NCBI RefSeq assembly: GCF_044324785.1
Contig: NZ_CP172127.1
DNA length: 64,000 nucleotides
Source: Escherichia coli
Lineage (GTDB): Bacteria > Pseudomonadota > Gammaproteobacteria > Enterobacterales > Enterobacteriaceae
Reading direction: 5' to 3' (one strand)
Shown here: positions 33,190 to 61,512 of the stretch, piece by piece
How positions within the stretch are numbered: the stretch's first letter is position 1
How the letters are laid out: each line of letters starts with the position of its first letter
Program-made: the position numbers and the translations under genes
Notes under the pieces: generated by a model
What the model saw: only the letters and a program-made list of their open reading frames with translations
What the model was told of the DNA's origin: nothing
The model's database searches: none

Positions 33190-33861
33190 ATGCAGTACCC
33201 GATTAACGAGATGTTCCAGACCCTGCAAGGTGAGGGTTACTTTACCGGCGTTCCCGCCATTTTTATTCGTTTACAGGGATGCCCGGTTGGCTGTGCCTGG
33301 TGCGACACCAAACACACCTGGGAAAAGCTTGAGGATCGGGAAGTCTCCCTTTTCAGCATTCTGGCGAAGACCAAAGAGAGTGATAAGTGGGGGGCGGCGA
33401 GCAGTGAAGACTTGCTGGCTGTCATTGGTCGCCAGGGATACACCGCGCGGCATGTGGTGATTACGGGTGGTGAGCCTTGCATTCATGATTTGCTGCCACT
33501 GACTGACCTGCTCGAAAAGAACGGTTTTAGCTGCCAGATCGAAACCAGTGGTACTCATGAGGTACGCTGCACACCGAATACCTGGGTTACCGTATCGCCA
33601 AAGCTGAACATGCGCGGCGGCTATGAAGTGTTGTCACAGGCACTGGAGCGAGCCAACGAAATCAAGCATCCAGTGGGACGCGTACGTGATATTGAAGCAC
33701 TGGATGAACTACTGGCAACACTGACCGATGATAAACCGCGAGTCATTGCGCTGCAGCCGATTAGCCAAAAGGATGATGCCACACGTTTGTGCATTGAAAC
33801 CTGCATTGCACGTAATTGGCGTTTGTCGATGCAAACACATAAATATTTAAATATTGCCTGA
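33190..33861 (+). CDS. queE: 7-carboxy-7-deazaguanine synthase (radical SAM)
   Basis: 223-aa ORF MQYPINEMFQTLQGEGYFTGVPAIFIRLQGCPVGCAWCDTKH... (CxxxCxxC-type radical SAM cluster); YgcF. Confidence 0.92.
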   Translation: MQYPINEMFQTLQGEGYFTGVPAIFIRLQGCPVGCAWCDTKHTWEKLEDREVSLFSILAKTKESDKWGAASSEDLLAVIGRQGYTARHVVITGGEPCIHDLLPLTDLLEKNGFSCQIETSGTHEVRCTPNTWVTVSPKLNMRGGYEVLSQALERANEIKHPVGRVRDIEALDELLATLTDDKPRVIALQPISQKDDATRLCIETCIARNWRLSMQTHKYLNIA

Positions 33862-34099
33862 TTAAACATTTATAAGCGTTATAAATGGGTGGGACCTGTA
33901 AAGACTTCTACTCATTTATATTCTTTGTCGCCTCTGAAAAACCTCCATTTTGCCCATCCTGGGCTAATCATTATCATTCTCTACAAATTCTATGGCGTTA
34001 ATTTTTCGTTGGAGTGAAAATTATTGCGGTGAAATTTGGTAGATTTTAGTTTGAATAGAGTTATTTTAAATATTTATCTTTTTAATCAATGGATTAAAT

Positions 34100-34199
34100 G
34101 CTCTTTAACATAATGGATGTGTTGTTTGTGTGATCCTGTAAAGTTGGTAGATTGTGACTGGCTTAAAAAATCATTAATTAATAATAGGTTATGTTTAGA
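34100..34199 (+). promoter_or_regulatory. CRISPR leader (array at 34200-34777)
   Basis: AT-rich sequence ...tggtagattgtgactggcttaaaaaatcattaattaataataggttatgtttagag directly abutting the first repeat; degenerate repeats are at the opposite end of the array. Confidence 0.75.
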
Positions 34200-34777
34200 G
34201 TGTTCCCCGCGCCAGCGGGGATAAACCGGGCGTTTCATGCTCATTGTTACCAACCCGCCAGTGTTCCCCGCGCCAGCGGGGATAAACCGCCGATGATCGG
34301 GCTCGGCATTTCGTCGAGGGGGTGTTCCCCGCGCCAGCGGGGATAAACCGGCTTGCAGCAGCTGCGCCAACGTCTGAATATGGTGTTCCCCGCGCCAGCG
34401 GGGATAAACCGATGGTGAGTGGTTGCATATGTGCCTGGCTATCGTGTTCCCCGCGCCAGCGGGGATAAACCGAGGCTATCTATCAGCCATTCTTCATCTA
34501 CTGAGTGTTCCCCGCGCCAGCGGGGATAAACCGGTCTGCTCGTGAGTCCGCGGCGCGAATTGCCGGTGTTCCCCGCGCCAGCGGGGATAAACCGCGAAGC
34601 TCCTTCCGTTGATTACCAAAATGTTGGTGTTCCCCGCGCCAGCGGGGATAAACCGACCGCCCGAACGGCAAAGGGGGCTTCTGGAAGGAGTTCCCCACGT
34701 CAGCGGGGATAAACCGGACACAGAGCGCCGCTATAGCGCCTATGCCAAGAGTTCCCCGCACCAGCGGGAATAAACCA
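34200..34777 (+). CRISPR. Type I-E CRISPR array, 10 repeats (29 bp, GTGTTCCCCGCGCCAGCGGGGATAAACCG), 9 spacers of 32 bp; last two repeats degenerate
   Basis: Repeats start at 34200, 34261, 34322, 34383, 34444, 34505, 34566, 34627, 34688 (gagttccccacgtcagc...), 34749 (gagttccccgcaccagcgggaataaacca); 61-bp periodicity read directly from the sequence. Confidence 0.97.
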
Positions 34778-35245
34778 CCATATAACCCGTTATCTCTTTC
34801 TCAAGTTTTTATATTAGCAGTACTCGTATTAAGCAACATATCCACGTAACACCTCATGTTCAAAATAGTTCTCCATGCCAGAGAAGTTCACAATTATCGA
34901 TACAAAAAATTAAATTTAATCAAAGTGTTATTTGTATGATTCTTAAATCGTTAAGAAATTTTAATCTATTGTTTTTTTAATATTGAATTAATGCCTGTTA
35001 ATTTTTTCTTTAGAATAACAGTGTATTTTTTAAGCTTGTTATTCATTGATTAAGTAATAAATCTGGAAGTTTGTCTTTGTTTTGAGGCTAATGAGTGGTT
35101 TTACATAACCGCCTCTATAGGCTGTTGATGAATAGTTCTTATGAATAAAGATATCCAGTTCATACTTTAAATGAAAATTGATAAAGTACGGTTTGCGTTG
35201 TCTTTTATTCTAAGGACATCGAGTGTAGTTAATATTCCTTGTAAC

Positions 35246-35370
35246 AACAGGGATAAACCGAACTAGTTAAAGTTTTTATTATGTTCCCTGCATCAGCGGG
35301 GATAAACCGGACTTGTTATCATTTTTTAAGTTGTCGAACTTATGTTCCCCGCGTCAGCGGGGATAACCAT
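35246..35370 (+). CRISPR. Degenerate CRISPR mini-array (one truncated and two mutated repeats, one 32-bp spacer)
   Basis: cagggataaaccg (35248-35260), tgttccctgcatcagcggggataaaccg (35282-35309), 32-bp spacer, atgttccccgcgtcagcggggataacca (35342-35369). Confidence 0.75.
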
Positions 35371-35415
35371 TCAGGTATGTTCAGGCCGGGCAGTTTCCCG
35401 CCCGGTCTTCCTCAC

Positions 35416-36894
35416 TTACGCATTCGACCAGCTCTGGATCGAATCCGCATTCCCCAATTCCCCATGCATCACTTCATACGATTTTTTCAGGATCACATCA
35501 GTGTGCTTGGTTAGGTCTTTGAAAATGCCTTTATTCATCGCGTCGTAGCGTTTGGCGTTGCTCTCAACAGGCATAAAGATATCTTTCACGCGAACCATTT
35601 TGTCGACAGCCGTTGCGTAATCCGGGTATAGCCCCAGACCTACCGCCGTATTAATCGCTGCCCCCAGGCTTGCACAACCATTAATGGCGTTACGGCGTGC
35701 CGGAAGGTTGAACACGTCGGCAAAAATCTGCATAAACAGATCGCTGTTCGAACCGCCGCCAGTAATGATCACATGCTTTGCAAAGTGATTCATTTCATTA
35801 CACATATTGTCGTAATTGTTCTTCAGCGTCAGCGCCACGCTTTCCAGTATCGAACGATATATCCATGCGTAATCCATGCTGGAATCAAAGCCGATCATAA
35901 TCCCGCGTTTGTACGGTTCCCACGGATTGGTCAGCCAGTCCAGCACCGTCATCAGACCATTACAGCCAGGCGGCACACAAGACGCTTTTTTGTTGAGCAA
36001 ATCTTCCGGTGAAAGATCCTGTGCTTTGGCATCCTGAATTAACGACTCGCCTAACATGTCGCGCAGCCAGCTCACTGTCCACATGCCTTTGCGGATACCG
36101 TAACCTTCATACAGCAATGTTTGCGGAATAGAAGACATAATCGGCCAGTACGCTACCGGATCTTTCGGCAGTGCTTTGCCGTTCATCATCAACGCGATGT
36201 AAGTGCCAAGAGAAATTACCGCAGTTTCATCATCCAGTAACCCGGCTCCCAGTGCTTCTACCGGTTTATCACTGGTGGTACAAACAACCGGCAGCCCAGC
36301 CGGGAAATGTGTCGCCAGCGCGGCTTGAGGAGTGATATGCCCAAGAACAGTGCCCGGCATTTGCACATCAAACAGCATATGACGGGGGATATTAAACTTA
36401 TCCATTACCGCAGCCTCTTCGCTCCATGCCCAGGTCTTATAATCCACCGGCCACTGACCAAAATAGTTGGCGATATTGTCTTTAAACTCGCCGGTTAAGC
36501 GATGCGTCAGATAACCCGAAAAAGAGGTGACATATGCCACGTCAGGATTCGTATGTTCGTAAGGGCGTGTAACGCGTGCATCCTGCCAGCTGATCAACGG
36601 TGCAGCTGGCGTGCCATCGGCTTTCAATAACGCACGGCAGCAACGGATGGATCCCAGACCAATACCGACAATATCGTCTTTATTCCCGGCAAACTGACTC
36701 ATCAAATCGTGACCGGCAAAACATAATGATGCCCATAAATCGTCGTCAGGATGTTCTGCAGTATCGGCATCTGGCGTGTGCATCGGCTGCAATAAACCTT
36801 TGCCTTCGCAAACCACGTTACCTTCCAGATCGTACATCACCACTTTTGTGCTCTGACTTCCACCATCAATCCCTATGATGTATTTCTTCGACAT
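35416..36894 (-). CDS. ygcE: FGGY-family carbohydrate kinase (substrate unknown)
   Basis: 492-aa ORF MSKKYIIGIDGGSQSTKVVMYDLEGNVVCEGKG...; FGGY kinase N-terminal motif. Confidence 0.85.
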   Translation of the reverse strand: MSKKYIIGIDGGSQSTKVVMYDLEGNVVCEGKGLLQPMHTPDADTAEHPDDDLWASLCFAGHDLMSQFAGNKDDIVGIGLGSIRCCRALLKADGTPAAPLISWQDARVTRPYEHTNPDVAYVTSFSGYLTHRLTGEFKDNIANYFGQWPVDYKTWAWSEEAAVMDKFNIPRHMLFDVQMPGTVLGHITPQAALATHFPAGLPVVCTTSDKPVEALGAGLLDDETAVISLGTYIALMMNGKALPKDPVAYWPIMSSIPQTLLYEGYGIRKGMWTVSWLRDMLGESLIQDAKAQDLSPEDLLNKKASCVPPGCNGLMTVLDWLTNPWEPYKRGIMIGFDSSMDYAWIYRSILESVALTLKNNYDNMCNEMNHFAKHVIITGGGSNSDLFMQIFADVFNLPARRNAINGCASLGAAINTAVGLGLYPDYATAVDKMVRVKDIFMPVESNAKRYDAMNKGIFKDLTKHTDVILKKSYEVMHGELGNADSIQSWSNA

Positions 36895-36920
36895 GATTTT
36901 TCTCCTGTAATTTTTCTGGC

Positions 36921-38198
36921 TTACTTGCTGTTAGCCGTTGCGGGGGTGCTATCAGCAGTACGAATTTTTTGGAACAGCAAAAAGGTAAAGACGATCACCA
37001 TGGCAAGCGCCGCCATGCCCATCAGCCACATATTGCGGTAGGCTTCTGCTGCGGGCAGGGTGTCTTGCCAGTGGCCGATAATTGGGTAAACGAAGACATC
37101 CGGCAGGAATCCAATCACCGAACAAATACCTACCGTGGTGCCCATAATGTAAGACGGTGTTCTTGCTTCGCCAGGGCAGGCCCAGTACAGCCCGCGTGAG
37201 GCGTAACAGGTGAATCCCAGCAGTAAAATCAGGCCAATCCCCATCGCGACCGATTGCGGGTTAGAGTTCGTGACGAGCAGGGCAGTTAACGCCAGCAGGC
37301 CGAGTACGGAAAGGATTTGGATCACGCGGGTAGGGGATTTCACTTTACTGTAGGTGGTAATAATGCCGCCAAGTGGGCCGCACAGCGCGCGGAAGATTTT
37401 GTTGATCACAATCCCCATGTAGCTCGCCGCCACCAGCGACATGCCGTACATTTCGGTCAGATAGTTGGTGGAGTAACTCAGAATGGCGTAGATGGTGAAG
37501 ACGCCAAAAATCACCATGCTGCAATACCAGGTGGTGCTGATACGCAAAACGGCCAGGATGTCGCTAAGCTGGAATGACTGTTTTTCTTCGTTATTGGCAC
37601 TGCGCAGGTTGTTGTTATCGCTAACAAAAAACCAGCACAGAATCCCCAACAAGATGTAAACCACACTGTAGATGATAATGACCGTTTTCAGGCTGGTGCT
37701 GTCATCCGGTGCAAAGCGAGAAAAGACCCACATGGTAAACACCGCCAGCGACATTACACCGACGCCGCGCAGCCCTTCCATCCAGCCCATAATTTTCCCT
37801 TGCTCACTATGATCGCCCAGCAATGAGGCGGCTTTAATCGACACCGACCACAGCATTAAAATCGTCGTTATCGCAAAGGCGATCTGAATACAGAGCATTA
37901 CCCACAGTGGTGGATATGTTGCCATTATCAGGCCCAGCAATCCGGTAATGATCATCGCGGAAGTAATCATTTTGCGGTGTGAAAATTTATCGGCAATAAC
38001 GCCGCTGGGGGCATAAAGAATAATAGCCGCAATACCAAAGGTACTCATTATTAAACCTATCTCGGTATTGCTGAATCCCATAAATTTCGCCATGGGAATT
38101 TGATAAATATAACGTAAATAAGCCAGGTCAAAACTAACGCCGCCGCTAAAACTAATTATCGCGAGGGTTATCCAACGGCGATATGAGTTGTGTTGCAT
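36921..38198 (-). CDS. yqcE: MFS transporter (substrate unknown)
   Basis: 425-aa polytopic ORF MQHNSYRRWITLAIISFSGGVSFDLAYLRYIYQIP... Confidence 0.85.
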   Translation of the reverse strand: MQHNSYRRWITLAIISFSGGVSFDLAYLRYIYQIPMAKFMGFSNTEIGLIMSTFGIAAIILYAPSGVIADKFSHRKMITSAMIITGLLGLIMATYPPLWVMLCIQIAFAITTILMLWSVSIKAASLLGDHSEQGKIMGWMEGLRGVGVMSLAVFTMWVFSRFAPDDSTSLKTVIIIYSVVYILLGILCWFFVSDNNNLRSANNEEKQSFQLSDILAVLRISTTWYCSMVIFGVFTIYAILSYSTNYLTEMYGMSLVAASYMGIVINKIFRALCGPLGGIITTYSKVKSPTRVIQILSVLGLLALTALLVTNSNPQSVAMGIGLILLLGFTCYASRGLYWACPGEARTPSYIMGTTVGICSVIGFLPDVFVYPIIGHWQDTLPAAEAYRNMWLMGMAALAMVIVFTFLLFQKIRTADSTPATANSK

Positions 38199-38516
38199 AT
38201 CGTATTCCCATTTGTAATAGACAAAAAAAAGAGAAAAGTAAGCCGCCCTTTCAGGTGGATTACTTTTCTCAGGTCTCTAGTAATTGCAATAAGAAATAAC
38301 ATGGAAAGCAGTGGTGTTGTGTGAGAGTAATCACGCTTCTGCTTTTTAAAATTATTTGACAATTCGAATATCACACTGTGATTACGATCACATTAGCGAT
38401 TATGCCCTTATGATAAAAATTATCTCCAGTTACCAGAGATAATGAGAAAGGTAACTTCCCTCTCGCGGGGGAAGTTACCTTTCTTTTTTTTTGCCTTACG
38501 GAAATTGGAGCTAACT

Positions 38517-39302
38517 ATGTCAATCGAATCTCTCAATGCGTTCTCAATGGATTTTTTCTCCCTGAAAGGTAAAACCGCTATTGTTACCGGCGGGAATAGC
38601 GGTTTAGGCCAGGCATTTGCCATGGCGCTGGCCAAAGCAGGCGCAAATATCTTTATTCCAAGCTTCGTTAAAGATAACGGCGAAACAAAGGAAATGATTG
38701 AAAAACAGGGTGTTGAAGTTGACTTTATGCAGGTGGATATCACCGCAAAAGGCGCGCCGCAGAAGATAATCGCCGCCTGTTGCGAACGTTTCGGTACCGT
38801 CGATATTCTGGTTAACAATGCCGGTATTTGTAAGCTGAATAAGGTGCTGGACTTCGGTCGTGCCGACTGGGATCCAATGATTGATGTGAACCTGACCGCC
38901 GCATTCGAGTTAAGCTATGAAGCTGCAAAAATTATGATCCCGCAGAAAAGCGGTAAAATCATTAATATCTGTTCATTATTCTCTTACTTAGGTGGACAAT
39001 GGTCACCTGCATATTCTGCCACTAAACATGCTCTTGCCGGATTCACCAAAGCTTATTGTGATGAACTAGGTCAATATAATATTCAGGTAAATGGTATTGC
39101 CCCTGGCTATTATGCAACAGATATTACGCTGGCGACACGCAGTAATCCAGAAACCAATCAGCGCGTTCTTGATCATATTCCGGCAAACCGTTGGGGCGAT
39201 ACTCAGGATTTAATGGGCGCAGCCGTATTCCTCGCAAGTCCGGCTTCAAATTATGTTAACGGGCATTTATTAGTGGTCGATGGCGGTTATTTAGTGCGCT
39301 AA
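38517..39302 (+). CDS. ygcW: Short-chain dehydrogenase/reductase (SDR)
   Basis: ORF 38442-39302; start placed at the ATG giving MSIESLNAFSMDFFSLKGKTAIVTGGNSGLGQAFA... (Rossmann TGGxSGxG motif), 261 aa. Confidence 0.85.
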   Translation: MSIESLNAFSMDFFSLKGKTAIVTGGNSGLGQAFAMALAKAGANIFIPSFVKDNGETKEMIEKQGVEVDFMQVDITAKGAPQKIIAACCERFGTVDILVNNAGICKLNKVLDFGRADWDPMIDVNLTAAFELSYEAAKIMIPQKSGKIINICSLFSYLGGQWSPAYSATKHALAGFTKAYCDELGQYNIQVNGIAPGYYATDITLATRSNPETNQRVLDHIPANRWGDTQDLMGAAVFLASPASNYVNGHLLVVDGGYLVR

Positions 39303-39371
39303 TCCATAACGGTGGTTTCTGTTTTCTCTTATTAATGATTATTCCATTTTTATTATCAGGAAGGAATTACT

Positions 39372-40826
39372 ATGTCTTTATCTCGCGCAGCGATAGTCGA
39401 CCAGCTAAAGGAAATTGTTGGTGCAGATCGCGTAATTACCGATGAAACAGTATTAAAGAAAAACAGTATTGACCGTTTTCGCAAATTTCCGGATATTCAT
39501 GGCATTTATACTTTGCCGATTCCGGCAGCGGTCGTAAAACTCGGTTCCACAGAACAAGTATCCCGTGTGCTGAATTTTATGAATGCGCACAAAATTAACG
39601 GTGTGCCGCGTACCGGTGCTTCCGCTACCGAAGGTGGGCTGGAAACCGTTGTGGAAAACTCGGTGGTGCTCGACGGCTCTGCCATGAATCAAATCATTAA
39701 TATTGATATTGAGAATATGCAGGCCACGGCGCAATGTGGTGTTCCGCTGGAAGTGCTGGAAAACGCGTTGCGTGAAAAAGGTTACACCACGGGGCATTCT
39801 CCGCAGTCAAAGCCGCTGGCGCAGATGGGCGGCCTGGTAGCAACCCGCAGTATTGGGCAGTTCTCCACACTCTACGGCGCAATCGAAGATATGGTCGTTG
39901 GTCTGGAAGCAGTATTGGCTGATGGCACCGTGACACGCATTAAAAACGTGCCACGTCGCGCGGCTGGCCCGGACATTCGTCACATCATCATCGGCAACGA
40001 AGGTGCATTGTGCTATATCACTGAAGTAACAGTGAAAATCTTTAAATTCACCCCAGAAAACAACCTCTTCTACGGCTATATCCTGGAAGACATGAAAACC
40101 GGCTTCAACATCCTGCGTGAAATCATGGTGGAAGGGTATCGTCCGTCGATCGCTCGTTTGTATGACGCCGAAGATGGCACCCAACACTTCACCCATTTTG
40201 CCGACGGAAAATGCGTGTTGATCTTTATGGCTGAAGGTAACCCTCGCATTGCGAAGGCGACGGGCGAAGGGATTGCGGAAATCGTAGCTCGCTACCCGCA
40301 ATGCCAGCGCGTGGACAGCAAGCTGATCGAAACCTGGTTTAACAACCTGAACTGGGGACCGGATAAAGTAGCTGCCGAACGTGTGCAGATCCTCAAAACC
40401 GGCAACATGGGCTTTACCACCGAAGTGTCCGGCTGCTGGAGCTGCATTCACGAAATCTACGAAAGCGTTATTAACCGTATTCGTACCGAGTTCCCGCACG
40501 CCGACGACATCACCATGCTGGGCGGTCACTCCTCTCATAGCTACCAGAACGGCACCAACATGTACTTCGTCTACGACTACAACGTCGTTGACTGTAAGCC
40601 GGAAGAGGAAATCGACAAGTACCACAATCCGCTCAACAAAATCATCTGCGAAGAAACCATTCGCCTCGGTGGTTCGATGGTGCACCACCACGGTATCGGT
40701 AAACATCGCGTTCACTGGAGCAAACTGGAACACGGCAGCGCGTGGGCGTTGCTGGAAGGGCTGAAAAAGCAGTTCGATCCTAACGGCATTATGAATACGG
40801 GTACTATCTATCCGATTGAAAAATAA
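39372..40826 (+). CDS. ygcU: FAD-linked oxidoreductase (FAD-binding PCMH type)
   Basis: 484-aa ORF MSLSRAAIVDQLKEIVGADRVITDETVLKKNSIDRFRKFP... Confidence 0.85.
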   Translation: MSLSRAAIVDQLKEIVGADRVITDETVLKKNSIDRFRKFPDIHGIYTLPIPAAVVKLGSTEQVSRVLNFMNAHKINGVPRTGASATEGGLETVVENSVVLDGSAMNQIINIDIENMQATAQCGVPLEVLENALREKGYTTGHSPQSKPLAQMGGLVATRSIGQFSTLYGAIEDMVVGLEAVLADGTVTRIKNVPRRAAGPDIRHIIIGNEGALCYITEVTVKIFKFTPENNLFYGYILEDMKTGFNILREIMVEGYRPSIARLYDAEDGTQHFTHFADGKCVLIFMAEGNPRIAKATGEGIAEIVARYPQCQRVDSKLIETWFNNLNWGPDKVAAERVQILKTGNMGFTTEVSGCWSCIHEIYESVINRIRTEFPHADDITMLGGHSSHSYQNGTNMYFVYDYNVVDCKPEEEIDKYHNPLNKIICEETIRLGGSMVHHHGIGKHRVHWSKLEHGSAWALLEGLKKQFDPNGIMNTGTIYPIEK

Positions 40827-40919
40827 TGTGTCAGGCAGCGTTCCACGATGACGGGGCGTTGCCATTTCGGCTTCTCAGGCGAGAAGCCGTTCTTATTACC
40901 GGACAATGAAGGGGTAAAG

Positions 40920-42257
40920 ATGAACACTTCACCGGTGCGAATGGATGATTTACCGCTTAACCGTTTTCACTGTCGAATTGCTGCGCTCACTTTCGGCGCG
41001 CACCTGACCGACGGTTATGTTCTCGGCGTCATTGGTTACGCCATTATTCAGCTTACACCCGCCATGCAACTGACGCCGTTTATGGCGGGAATGATTGGCG
41101 GCTCGGCGCTCCTTGGTTTGTTTCTTGGCAGCCTGGTTCTTGGATGGATCTCCGACCATATTGGTCGGCAAAAAATCTTCACCTTCAGCTTTTTGCTGAT
41201 TACGCTCGCTTCGTTCTTGCAATTTTTTGCCACCACGCCAGAGCATCTTATTGGGCTGCGCATTTTGATCGGCATTGGGCTGGGAGGCGATTACTCAGTC
41301 GGTCACACCTTGCTGGCTGAATTTTCCCCGCGCCGCCATCGCGGTGTTTTGCTGGGCGCATTCAGCGTGGTGTGGACCGTAGGCTATGTGTTGGCAAGTA
41401 TTGCCGGACATCACTTTATTAGCGAAAGCCCGGAGGCCTGGCGCTGGCTGCTGGCATCGGCAGCTCTGCCCGCGTTGTTGATTACGTTATTACGCTGGGG
41501 AACGCCAGAATCGCCACGCTGGCTACTGCGCCAGGGGCGTTTTGCAGAAGCTCACGCTATCGTGCATCGCTATTTTGGTCCCCATGTTTTACTGGGCGAT
41601 GAAGTGGCAACGGCGACCCATAAACACATCAAAACCTTGTTCTCTTCGCGCTACTGGCGGCGCACGGCGTTTAACAGCGTCTTCTTTGTCTGCCTCGTAA
41701 TCCCATGGTTTGTGATTTATACCTGGCTGCCAACTATCGCCCAAACTATTGGTCTGGAAGATGCGCTGACTGCCAGCCTGATGCTTAATGCGTTGTTAAT
41801 TGTGGGCGCGCTGCTGGGATTAGTTCTGACGCACCTGCTGGCACATCGCAAATTTTTGCTGGGAAGTTTTTTGCTGCTGGCGGCAACGCTGGTAGTAATG
41901 GCCTGTTTGCCTTCCGGCAGTTCATTAACGCTGCTGCTTTTTGTTCTCTTCAGCACCACCATTTCTGCAGTCAGTAATCTGGTGGGCATTTTGCCTGCGG
42001 AAAGTTTTCCTACTGACATTCGCTCGCTGGGCGTCGGTTTTGCCACCGCCATGAGTCGGTTGGGGGCGGCGGTAAGTACTGGCCTGCTGCCGTGGGTGCT
42101 GGCGCAGTGGGGAATGCAAGTCACCTTATTGCTCCTGGCGGCAGTGTTGTTGGTTGGTTTTGTCGTGACCTGGCTATGGGCACCAGAAACCAAAGCACTC
42201 CCGCTGGTGGCGGCGGGAAATGTAGGAGGTGCGAATGAACATTCTGTTAGCGTTTAA
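40920..42257 (+). CDS. ygcS: MFS transporter (substrate unknown)
   Basis: ORF 40848-42257; start placed at the ATG giving MNTSPVRMDDLPLNRFHCRIAALTFGAHLTDGY... (445 aa). Confidence 0.82.
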   Translation: MNTSPVRMDDLPLNRFHCRIAALTFGAHLTDGYVLGVIGYAIIQLTPAMQLTPFMAGMIGGSALLGLFLGSLVLGWISDHIGRQKIFTFSFLLITLASFLQFFATTPEHLIGLRILIGIGLGGDYSVGHTLLAEFSPRRHRGVLLGAFSVVWTVGYVLASIAGHHFISESPEAWRWLLASAALPALLITLLRWGTPESPRWLLRQGRFAEAHAIVHRYFGPHVLLGDEVATATHKHIKTLFSSRYWRRTAFNSVFFVCLVIPWFVIYTWLPTIAQTIGLEDALTASLMLNALLIVGALLGLVLTHLLAHRKFLLGSFLLLAATLVVMACLPSGSSLTLLLFVLFSTTISAVSNLVGILPAESFPTDIRSLGVGFATAMSRLGAAVSTGLLPWVLAQWGMQVTLLLLAAVLLVGFVVTWLWAPETKALPLVAAGNVGGANEHSVSV

Positions 42258-54521: not shown

Positions 54522-54547
54522 GATGCCCTGGCGTCGGATGACGCCAG

Positions 54548-54576
54548 GGCTTATCCCCGCTGACGCGGGGAACAGG
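54548..54576 (-). repeat. Solitary CRISPR-repeat-like sequence in inverted orientation downstream of cas3
   Basis: Minus-strand reading cctgttccccgcgtcagcggggataagcc matches the array repeat at 25 of 27 aligned positions; immediately preceded by a second perfect hairpin gccctggcgtc-ggat-gacgccagggc (54525-54550). Confidence 0.8.
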
Positions 54577-54950
54577 AGCATAAAATGATATACGTGTATC
54601 ACTAACTTGGTTAATCCCTTAGACAGGGAACTGAAGACGTTTATATCAAAAATAAGGGTTATTCGAAATAAAGAAAATCTCTAAGAGTTATTGATATACG
54701 TAACAATGTCCGGAAGCAGAGTTGAAAAACCTTTTGATAAAGAATACTTTGGTTTTTATTAAGTGATAGAGCCTGAGCGAAAAGGATTATAGAAAATTAT
54801 CTTTATATATTCGTGTGATTTATTGATTATTTAATAATAATCTAATTTTCAATATATTCATTTAATATGATGTAATCTCTCTTTTCGATTGATTCTTGAA
54901 TATGGTGATGGACAACCTACCATGGATGGTCTTATTTGCGAGGAAAGCGT
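54577..54950 (+). promoter_or_regulatory. cas3-cse1 intergenic region, expected Cascade operon promoter (Pcas; H-NS/LeuO-controlled in K-12)
   Basis: About 370 bp of strongly AT-rich non-coding DNA upstream of cse1 with a good RBS (gagga) before the ATG at 54951; promoter elements not mapped. Confidence 0.5.
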
Positions 54951-60811: not shown

Positions 60812-61512
60812 GTGTTCCCCGCGCCAGCGGGGATAAACCGTTTCACCGTCGTTCCGTCCGCGCGCTTAGCCTGTGTTCCCCGCGCCAGCGGGGATAAACC
60901 GATTGCGCGGACCGGGCCAGCGCGTCGATTTCTGTGTTCCCCGCGCCAGCGGGGATAAACCGGTGACGACGATCCCAACGCTGCAAAAGGTTAAGTGTTC
61001 CCCGCGCCAGCGGGGATAAACCGCCGTGCTCAATTCAACACCCGACACTGCGCGAGTGTTCCCCGCGCCAGCGGGGATAAACCGTTGTAATTTTGTTCAG
61101 TCTGGCCCATAGCGCGCGTGTTCCCCGCGCCAGCGGGGATAAACCGTTTTGTGAGTATCTTATTTGTCTGGCTCGGTGGTGTTCCCCGCGCCAGCGGGGA
61201 TAAACCGATCTGTTTGCAGATCAACAGGCCCGTAAGGACGTGTTCCCCGCGCCAGCGGGGATAAACCGATAACGCCCGCGCGATCTGGATTATCAGTTAC
61301 GTGTTCCCCGCGCCAGCGGGGATAAACCGCCCGACGGCAGTCGGAGATTAACTATATATGTGTGTTCCCCGCGCCAGCGGGGATAAACCGGGTAAAAACA
61401 CGGTCTGAACCGACATTCATGTGTGTTCCCCGCGTCAGCGGGGATAAACCGGACGCACTGGATGCGATGATGGATATCACTTAGAATTCCCCGCCCCTGC
61501 GGTAGAACTCGC
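60812..61512 (+). CRISPR. Type I-E CRISPR array, 12 repeats (11 canonical 29-bp GTGTTCCCCGCGCCAGCGGGGATAAACCG plus 1 degenerate terminal), 11 spacers of 32-33 bp
   Basis: Repeats start at 60812, 60873, 60934, 60995, 61056, 61118, 61179, 61240, 61301, 61362, 61423 (gcgTcagc variant) and degenerate 61484 (gaattccccgcccctgcggtagaactcgc). Confidence 0.97.

Follow-up and report, generated by a model that had tools for sequence, protein, structure and literature searches.

Apparent sequence constraint on a degenerate type I-E mini-array, almost certainly CRISPR2.2, at the CRISPR-II locus of Escherichia coli

Introduction

A small array described at the type I-E CRISPR-II locus of Escherichia coli is called CRISPR2.2 by Almendros et al. 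(2014, PMC3903273) and by Garcia-Gutierrez et al. (PMC4489801), and these two papers trace the name to the nomenclature of Diez-Villasenor et al. (2010). CRISPR2.2 and CRISPR2.3 are described there as "separated by 0.5 kb", with leaders beside CRISPR2.1 and CRISPR2.3 alone (PMC3903273). The same study proposed that degenerate terminal repeats serve as "anchors", which recombination with consensus repeats would not easily remove. At the leader-distal iap end of CRISPR2.1, such a repeat sits beside an old, pervasive spacer and is proposed to resist loss.

Two other kinds of described element bear on this locus. Functional orphan arrays are known in E. coli: the anti-cas spacers of the orphan I-F array CRISPR4.1-2 correspond to I-F cas genes, and interference by them was demonstrated, according to the citation of Almendros et al. 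(2016) in PMC8616872. Promoter islands have been catalogued in K-12, among them 2901670_347, listed as ygcE(+)/queE(-) with a length of 347 bp at U00096.2 position 2901670 (Panyukov and Ozoline 2013, PMC3661553). This island is reported to be bound by H-NS in all ChIP data sets, RNA polymerase also binds the K-12 tract, and the joint occupancy is reported to go with little transcript output (PMC3661553).

Results

The window, that is, the whole 64,000-nucleotide (64-kb) stretch of E. coli DNA analyzed here, spans the entire type I-E CRISPR region of that species. The features discussed below are as follows.

33190-33861, plus strand: queE (ygcF), a 223-aa ORF that borders the CRISPR-II locus on the left; annotated as queE in matching RefSeq loci
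33862-34199, plus strand: leader of CRISPR2.3, 338 nt, AT-rich, ending in ...ggttatgtttaga, then the first repeat
34200-34777, plus strand: CRISPR2.3 array, 10 repeats and 9 spacers, 29-nt repeats at 61-nt spacing
34778-35231, no strand: AT-rich tract, 454 bp, separating CRISPR2.3 from CRISPR2.2
35125-35231, no strand: conserved block, 107 bp, at the right end of the tract and directly upstream of Ra
35232-35260, plus strand: repeat Ra, ATATTCCTTGTAACAACAGGGATAAACCG, 29 nt, full-length and degenerate, 20/29 to the consensus
35261-35280, plus strand: short spacer, 20 nt, AACTAGTTAAAGTTTTTATT
35281-35309, plus strand: repeat Rb, ATGTTCCCTGCATCAGCGGGGATAAACCG, 25/29 to the array consensus
35310-35341, plus strand: long spacer, 32 nt, GACTTGTTATCATTTTTTAAGTTGTCGAACTT
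35342-35369, plus strand: terminal repeat Rc, GATAACCA, 28 nt (1-nt deletion), ending in GGGGATAACCA
35384-35407, no strand: GC-rich hairpin between Rc and the ygcE stop, terminator-like, lacking a T-run, read from the sequence
35416-36894, minus strand: ygcE, a 492-aa ORF for an FGGY-family sugar kinase forming the convergent right flank; ygcE in RefSeq loci

The final two repeats of CRISPR2.3, at 34688 and 34749, are degenerate. Beyond them the GC content falls to 17-38% (100-nt windows) for 454 bp up to Ra, or 503 bp up to Rb; the initial annotation had correctly placed AT-rich DNA before the mini-array and had put it at about 470 bp, slightly more than we measured. On the other side, the ygcE stop codon lies 46 nt beyond the end of Rc, and the GC-rich hairpin in that gap is present in predicted folds and drew no call from a terminator scan. 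RefSeq applies "CRISPR" to the large array only and annotates nothing between the array and ygcE, MG1655 included.

A mini-array of three repeats and two spacers

The repeat and spacer sequences quoted in the initial annotation are all present where it placed them, and the repeat similarity on which it had staked its reading lies above chance. Across both strands of the 64-kb window, outside the repeat arrays, the best 29-mer match to the repeat consensus attributable to background is 19/29; the one match above it (25/29), in the cas3-cse1 spacer, is another CRISPR repeat. Against the type I-E consensus, Rb scores 25/29, Rc 24/29 when aligned without gaps, and Ra 20/29, all in excess of that maximum. 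The letters that had been taken for a truncated repeat, cagggataaaccg, form the 3' end of Ra, which is full-length, lies in register, and has kept its hairpin, and the element therefore comprises three repeats and two spacers; the mutated repeats and the 32-nt spacer reported earlier stand, while the count of a single spacer does not.

All three repeats are predicted to form a Cas6e-type hairpin, a 7-bp stem with a 4-nt loop in the consensus register. The Ra hairpin (-7.9 kcal/mol) carries two C-G to U-A double changes and one wobble, that of Rb (-12.1 kcal/mol) keeps its pairing through one G-U wobble, and the stem of Rc (-15.1 kcal/mol) is perfect. We considered whether the compensatory changes in the Ra stem by themselves betray selection and rejected this, since an all-transition model gives P ~0.16. 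The 8-nt 3' handle, ATAAACCG, is intact in Ra (GGGATAAACCG) and in Rb and altered in Rc (ATAACCA). From Rb to Rc the unit measures 61 nt, the regular type I-E length of a 29-nt repeat plus a 32-nt spacer; from Ra to Rb it measures 49 nt.

The mini-array thus shares with the canonical type I-E arrays of the same window, CRISPR2.1 and CRISPR2.3, the repeat family, the hairpin register, the AUAAACCG handle, the 61-nt unit (Rb-spacer-Rc), and AT-rich DNA upstream in the same orientation. It differs from them in having no homologous leader and no spacer turnover, in the unit of only 49 nt, and in repeats that stand 4 to 9 mismatches off the consensus.

Identity and distribution

We regard the mini-array as almost certainly CRISPR2.2, the ygcE-proximal array of the CRISPR-II locus, an element already described. 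Its flanking genes are ygcE and queE/ygcF, the former being the nearer, and its repeats are of type 2 (I-E). As in published CRISPR2.2, there are three repeats and two invariable spacers, the distance from CRISPR2.3 is ~0.5 kb (454 bp measured), and a fused CRISPR2.2-3 array takes its place in some lineages. No structural difference was found, and the one peculiarity is that the window strain carries a rare allele. The earlier suggestion of a remnant of a separate, third array is supported: it is a small array of the same repeat family, and it has a name. The CRISPR2b of papers on STEC typing we take to be the same element.

At coverage of at least 80%, the interval is found in 4,123 of 5,426 complete E. 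coli genomes, in every case on the chromosome; it is missing from about 1,300 of the 5,426 and from several Escherichia species. The window allele has matches of at least 99% in 5 genomes only, with 8 substitutions clustered in 35171-35245. It is a mosaic, and mosaic alleles are a sign of recombination here.

Frozen spacers

Throughout E. coli, CRISPR2.2 has a frozen set of spacers. Of the 4,062 E. coli genomes that carry the 32-nt spacer, 4,048 (99.7%) have it identical at 32/32 positions, and both this spacer and the 20-nt spacer are invariant among nine E. coli strains. The variability expected of an adapting type I-E array was not found; strains differ by deletion variants only. In the lineage of E69, a genome labelled E. 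coli that is a separate species representative in the collection and shows 15-34% divergence from K-12 at 4-fold sites of neighboring genes, 30/32 positions of the 32-nt spacer are the same. These figures support the view that this spacer is ancient and essentially fixed, and they agree with the initial annotation, which had placed it among the oldest at the locus. In register, the 20-nt spacer matches the start of the 32-nt spacer at 12/20 positions (P = 0.023), a weak hint of unit duplication. The idea that the shorter spacer is a decayed copy of the longer one was set aside as weak; the local alignment is not significant.

The search for the origin of the spacer suggested at the outset was run against phages, plasmids, E. 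coli records, and IMG/VR, and it yielded no protospacer. With the 32-nt spacer as the query, no phage match fell below E = 0.3, the matches in the plasmid set were all mislabelled E. coli chromosomes, and the sole IMG/VR match, when every sixth base was allowed to vary, was a mis-binned piece of chromosome with the same locus. A second site of ~20 nt or more was absent from 20,395 E. coli chromosome and plasmid records.

These results bear on the possibility that the 32-nt spacer is a working guide RNA, conserved for a nonimmune role or a role against some element. Its flanks, the intact AUAAACCG 5' handle from Rb and the perfect Rc hairpin, would suit such a guide, as would its identity in 99.7% of carriers and at 30/32 positions in E69. 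There is also the precedent of the functional orphan arrays of E. coli (Almendros 2016, as cited in PMC8616872): like CRISPR4.1-2 as described through that source, CRISPR2.2 is a small array with fixed spacers, retained species-wide. The orphan array, which lies away from cas genes, has anti-cas targets, however, whereas for the CRISPR2.2 spacers no target was found; the 32-nt spacer has no match of ~20 nt elsewhere in the 20,395 E. coli records, in phages, or in true plasmids, and the lone IMG/VR match, obtained with every sixth base free, leads back to the chromosomal locus. Moreover, in E. coli 2013C-4282 the spacer carries four changes in its central part, and H-NS silences the tract in K-12 (PMC3661553). 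A working guide would thus seem quite improbable.

Relatives and history of the locus

A comparison across E. coli and other Escherichia, of the kind that had been proposed earlier for E. coli and Shigella, reveals a conserved mini-array, deletion variants, and lineages without the tract. The tract is missing from B2 E. coli SF-166, E. albertii, E. whittamii, and Escherichia sp. MOD1-EC7003. In the first three, the same leader opens an array that continues without a break to an Rc-type terminal repeat (GGGGATAACCA), which adjoins the ygcE hairpin; MOD1-EC7003 retains a truncated remnant of the Rc end only (GGGGGGATAACCA). The presence of the same end in tract-less lineages identifies Rc as the ancestral terminal repeat of the locus, in which single fused "CRISPR2.2-3" arrays end directly.

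Other genomes have lost parts of the mini-array. In E69 a tract leads into Ra, the 32-nt spacer, and Rc, with Rb and the 20-nt spacer missing; E. coli 2013C-4282 is built in the same short way and shares some of the E69-like substitutions within the conserved block. In strain TB06052, Rb and the 32-nt spacer are gone, leaving Ra, the 20-nt spacer, and Rc. An E69-like version of the complete interval did not turn up among complete E. coli genomes, in which the closest full-length match reached 80%; 2013C-4282 emerged from the same search. Because these deletions run from repeat to repeat, we favor an old tract that was lost repeatedly through recombination with Rc over the alternative, a single insertion of the tract into a once-continuous array; the comparison covers five outgroup lineages.

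Constraint on the mini-array and the adjoining 107 bp

Divergence between K-12 and E69 provides a yardstick for this interval. At 4-fold sites it is 20% in ygcU, 34% in ygcW, 15% in yqcE, 29% in ygcE, and 28% in partial queE, or 185/779 (24%) pooled over these five neighboring genes. The left and middle parts of the tract diverge by 33%, a neutral-like rate. Divergence in the 107-bp block (35125-35231) is 10%, in Ra 0% (29/29), in the 32-nt spacer 6%, and in Rc 7%, to be compared with 6.5% in the working leader of CRISPR2.3. Taken together, the mini-array and the 107 bp upstream of it show 15 differences in 197 nt (7.6%), some 3 to 4 times less divergence than neutral sites (P = 3e-9 against the pooled 4-fold rate and P = 0.002 against the slowest gene).

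Variation within E. coli draws the same outline. Among nine diverse strains, variable columns amount to 24-34% in the middle of the tract and 20% from Rc to the ygcE stop, against 0-3% in Ra, the 20-nt spacer, Rb, and the 32-nt spacer; in the block (35126-35231), 2 of 106 columns vary among eight diverse strains. When K-12 was used as the query against all complete E. coli genomes, the share of genomes with at least 99% identity was 57% for the left half of the tract, 88% for its right half together with the mini-array (at least 86% after subtraction of partial hits), and 27% for the adjacent 303 nt of ygcE. Over some 4,100 E. coli genomes, the mini-array and the 107 bp before it are thus more uniform than the coding sequence next to them. 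Because of these divergence, variable-column, and identity-share data, we recognize a conserved island of ~245 bp between faster-evolving flanks. The mini-array and the 107 bp upstream of it appear to be under constraint comparable to that on a real leader, rather than in neutral decay. Exchange between lineages by recombination may account for part of the low local divergence, and the window allele is itself a mosaic.

The initial annotation had called the element a fossil. That label is too simple: a fossil would be in neutral decay, whereas the divergence of 7.6% is below both the 15-34% of neutral sites and the 33% seen elsewhere in the tract. The strictest form of the idea would make CRISPR2.2 a functionless remnant, uniform because of a recent common ancestor, recombination, or a low rate of mutation at this spot. 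Its repeats are indeed degenerate, one of its spacers is down to 20 nt, it has neither leader homology (see below) nor a protospacer match, and it is easily lost, being absent from ~1,300 of 5,426 E. coli genomes and from several Escherichia species; the mosaic alleles attest to recombination at the locus. Such an account would nevertheless have to explain why 7.6% stands against 24% at pooled 4-fold sites and 33% in the adjoining tract, a comparison drawn from one genome pair, and why variable flanks bound the element on both sides (24-34% in the middle of the tract, 20% from Rc to the ygcE stop). Every stem change in Ra also keeps pairing, though alone this carries P ~0.16. We therefore consider a pure neutral fossil unlikely.

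The AT-rich tract: leader or promoter island

The suggestion that the tract is a decayed leader found no support in sequence comparison. Smith-Waterman alignment of the tract with the leader of CRISPR2.3 was marginal (39/48 columns; z ~2, with 15 of 300 dinucleotide shuffles as good), and local alignment with the leader of CRISPR2.1 fell below shuffles. A profile of seven leader sequences, run with nhmmer against six tract alleles with filters off, gave a best E of 2.8 and negative bit scores, and the motif GTTGGTAGATTGT, common to both real leaders of the window, is absent from the tract. A scan for the IHF consensus was uninformative, the real leaders themselves scoring below 8/9. Because alignments, profile, and motif gave no homology, the decayed-leader reading is left with position and composition as its basis, and CRISPR2.2 appears to have no leader homologous to the known ones. 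Homologs of the tract were not found in phages or true plasmids.

There remains the thought that the tract, or its last ~107 bp, is a leader of a nonhomologous type, with a promoter and former integration signals. It is AT-rich, lies upstream of Ra in the orientation of the two real leaders, contains a block about as conserved as the leader of CRISPR2.3 (10% versus 6.5% divergence), shows the marginal local similarity just described (39/48 columns; 15/300 shuffles as good), and binds RNA polymerase in K-12 (PMC3661553). Yet the leader profile is negative, GTTGGTAGATTGT is missing, the conserved block drew no plus-strand promoter-like call, the spacer content does not vary, and the literature gives leaders to CRISPR2.1 and CRISPR2.3 alone (PMC3903273). 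We judge this identification distinctly unlikely. A simple scan called no plus-strand promoter-like site in the last 300 nt upstream of Ra; the simple sigma-70 scan as a whole found 4 sites in 1.7 kb versus 3.7 expected, with promoter and terminator calls not above shuffles.

Most of the tract is, in K-12, a catalogued H-NS-bound promoter island. Island 2901670_347 maps to tract positions 19-365 (window 34796-35142), given a +1978 offset between K-12 genome versions that we inferred and checked against the neighboring queE/ygcG island; the counterpart of these positions is listed as "ygcE/queE". The cas3-casA and queE-ygcG spacers are likewise islands (PMC3661553). The island corresponds to the fast-evolving part of the tract and includes little of the 107-bp conserved block or the mini-array.

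The block itself shows no recognized motif, no promoter or terminator call, no Rfam family, and no credible ORF. A 31-codon plus-strand ORF (35171-35266) is open in E. coli, an ORF with the same start is open in E69, and four substitutions in it fall on consecutive third positions, as might be expected if the block encoded a small protein outside the CRISPR system. It has no Shine-Dalgarno sequence, however, 7 of the 8 codons changed between K-12 and E69 (counted by eye) are nonsynonymous, and its 3' half is the Ra repeat. Both this ORF and a 20-aa minus-strand ORF were rejected, for want of a Shine-Dalgarno sequence, for nonsynonymous divergence, or for truncation in E69. A structured small RNA would be the other non-CRISPR product: the K-12 sequence by itself predicts an extended, imperfect hairpin on the plus strand at 35118-35227 (z = -3.25), and transitions in other alleles mostly preserve its pairs. 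Against it, a composition-matched permutation that kept base and change type gave 3 broken pairs versus 5.5 expected (P = 0.06-0.07). With no Rfam match and nothing annotated in MG1655, a small protein or a structured small RNA is very improbable indeed.

Complementarity between 35174-35194 and the Rb/spacer junction was another candidate that we dropped. It is significant in the window allele only (3/1,000 shuffles) and not significant in K-12, E69, or 2013C-4282, and we treat it as lineage-specific or due to chance.

Discussion

CRISPR2.2 is probably best described as a mini-array of three degenerate repeats and two fixed spacers, separated by the AT-rich tract from the active-type CRISPR2.3. 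That it is a relic in which adaptation has ceased we hold with considerable confidence: since it has no leader, it would no longer acquire spacers. Any transcript of CRISPR2.2 would come from read-through out of CRISPR2.3 or from the H-NS-silenced tract. Because the hairpins are kept, the AUAAACCG handle from Rb is intact, and the Rc hairpin is perfect, Cas6e could release one canonical 61-nt crRNA with the 32-nt spacer if the region were transcribed; the 5' end of this predicted crRNA would read AUAAACCG-GACUUGUU...

Persistence of the mini-array through targeting of a known invader does not appear to be the case. Its diverged repeats may recombine poorly with consensus repeats, in line with the "anchor" idea, or it may persist as a boundary where the transcription units of CRISPR2.3 and ygcE converge. 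The likeness to the iap end of CRISPR2.1 (PMC3903273) extends to a degenerate repeat with an old spacer, but that anchor is at another locus, and CRISPR2.2 also lies 454 bp away from its array. Anchor and boundary are the most economical readings, and neither accounts for the fixed letters of the spacers; as the reason for conservation, we offer one or the other tentatively.

Because the constraint equals that on a working leader across ~24% synonymous divergence, it may also be asked whether CRISPR2.2 and the 107-bp block together (35125-35369) form a selectively maintained functional unit rather than a relic. Candidate roles for such a unit would be that of a hard-wired guide RNA with an endogenous role or that of a cis-acting boundary insulating the CRISPR2.3 and ygcE units. 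On the sequence comparisons presented here, we think this rather unlikely.

Both the CRISPR2.2 array and the H-NS-bound promoter island beside it were already known, and the constraint figures may be the one point that goes beyond the literature we consulted. If that constraint does reflect function, an overlooked working element would lie at the CRISPR-II locus of K-12, the best-studied CRISPR model.

Variant alleles beside ygcE

Compared with almost every other E. coli, the window strain carries eight clustered substitutions at 35171-35245, where the AT-rich tract runs into the first repeat (Ra) of CRISPR2.2, the mini-array beside ygcE. Because four of the eight agree with the allele of E69 (labelled E. 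coli but a separate species representative) and E. coli 2013C-4282, sequence comparison suggests that the window allele is a recombinant, or mosaic. Complementarity between 35174-35194 and the junction of the second repeat (Rb) and spacer, at 19 of 23 columns, is confined to the window allele; 3 of 1,000 shuffles reached it. The 2013C-4282 and E69 genomes also share an alternative CRISPR2.2 architecture, which consists of Ra, the 32-nt spacer, and the last repeat (Rc) and lacks both Rb and the 20-nt spacer; four central positions of the 32-nt spacer are changed in 2013C-4282.

A second mini-array between cas3 and cse1

Another mini-array lies elsewhere in the window.

54522-54935: cas3-cse1 intergenic region
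54547-54636, minus strand: second mini-array, inside this region, immediately past the cas3 stop

It comprises a repeat (CTGTTCCCCGCGTCAGCGGGGATAAGCCC; 25/29 identity to the type I-E array consensus), a 32-nt spacer, and a degenerate repeat (..CAGTTCCCTGTCTAAGGGATTAACCA). The intergenic region is rarely found in this form, with full-length matches in 2 of 5,426 complete E. coli genomes, while 7 further genomes of that set align to the first ~100 nt only, at 86%. The cse1 gene beside it is of the common type. A related copy, with a 26-nt spacer, occurs in strain ECNB21-M121.

In CRISPR2.1, another type I-E array of the window, one spacer (61085-61117) is 33 nt long rather than 32 (repeat spacing, 62).

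Divergence and possible recombination around the CRISPR-II locus

The "viral" IMG/VR contig IMGVR_UViG_2531839665_000019 is an E. coli chromosome fragment with ygcE, CRISPR2.2, the tract, and the CRISPR2.3 array, and it would yield false spacer-to-virus matches. In "E. coli SCPM-O-B-8794," a separate species representative, the entire CRISPR-II locus (between queE and ygcE) is absent, and the stop of queE is connected with the hairpin at ygcE by ~150 nt of unrelated sequence.

Across 33190-42000, the window strain differs from K-12 at 5 to 14% of four-fold sites (queE, ygcE, yqcE, ygcW, and ygcU), which seemed high for one species. This divergence is uneven among the genes, as would fit frequent recombination in the neighbourhood of the CRISPR-II locus.
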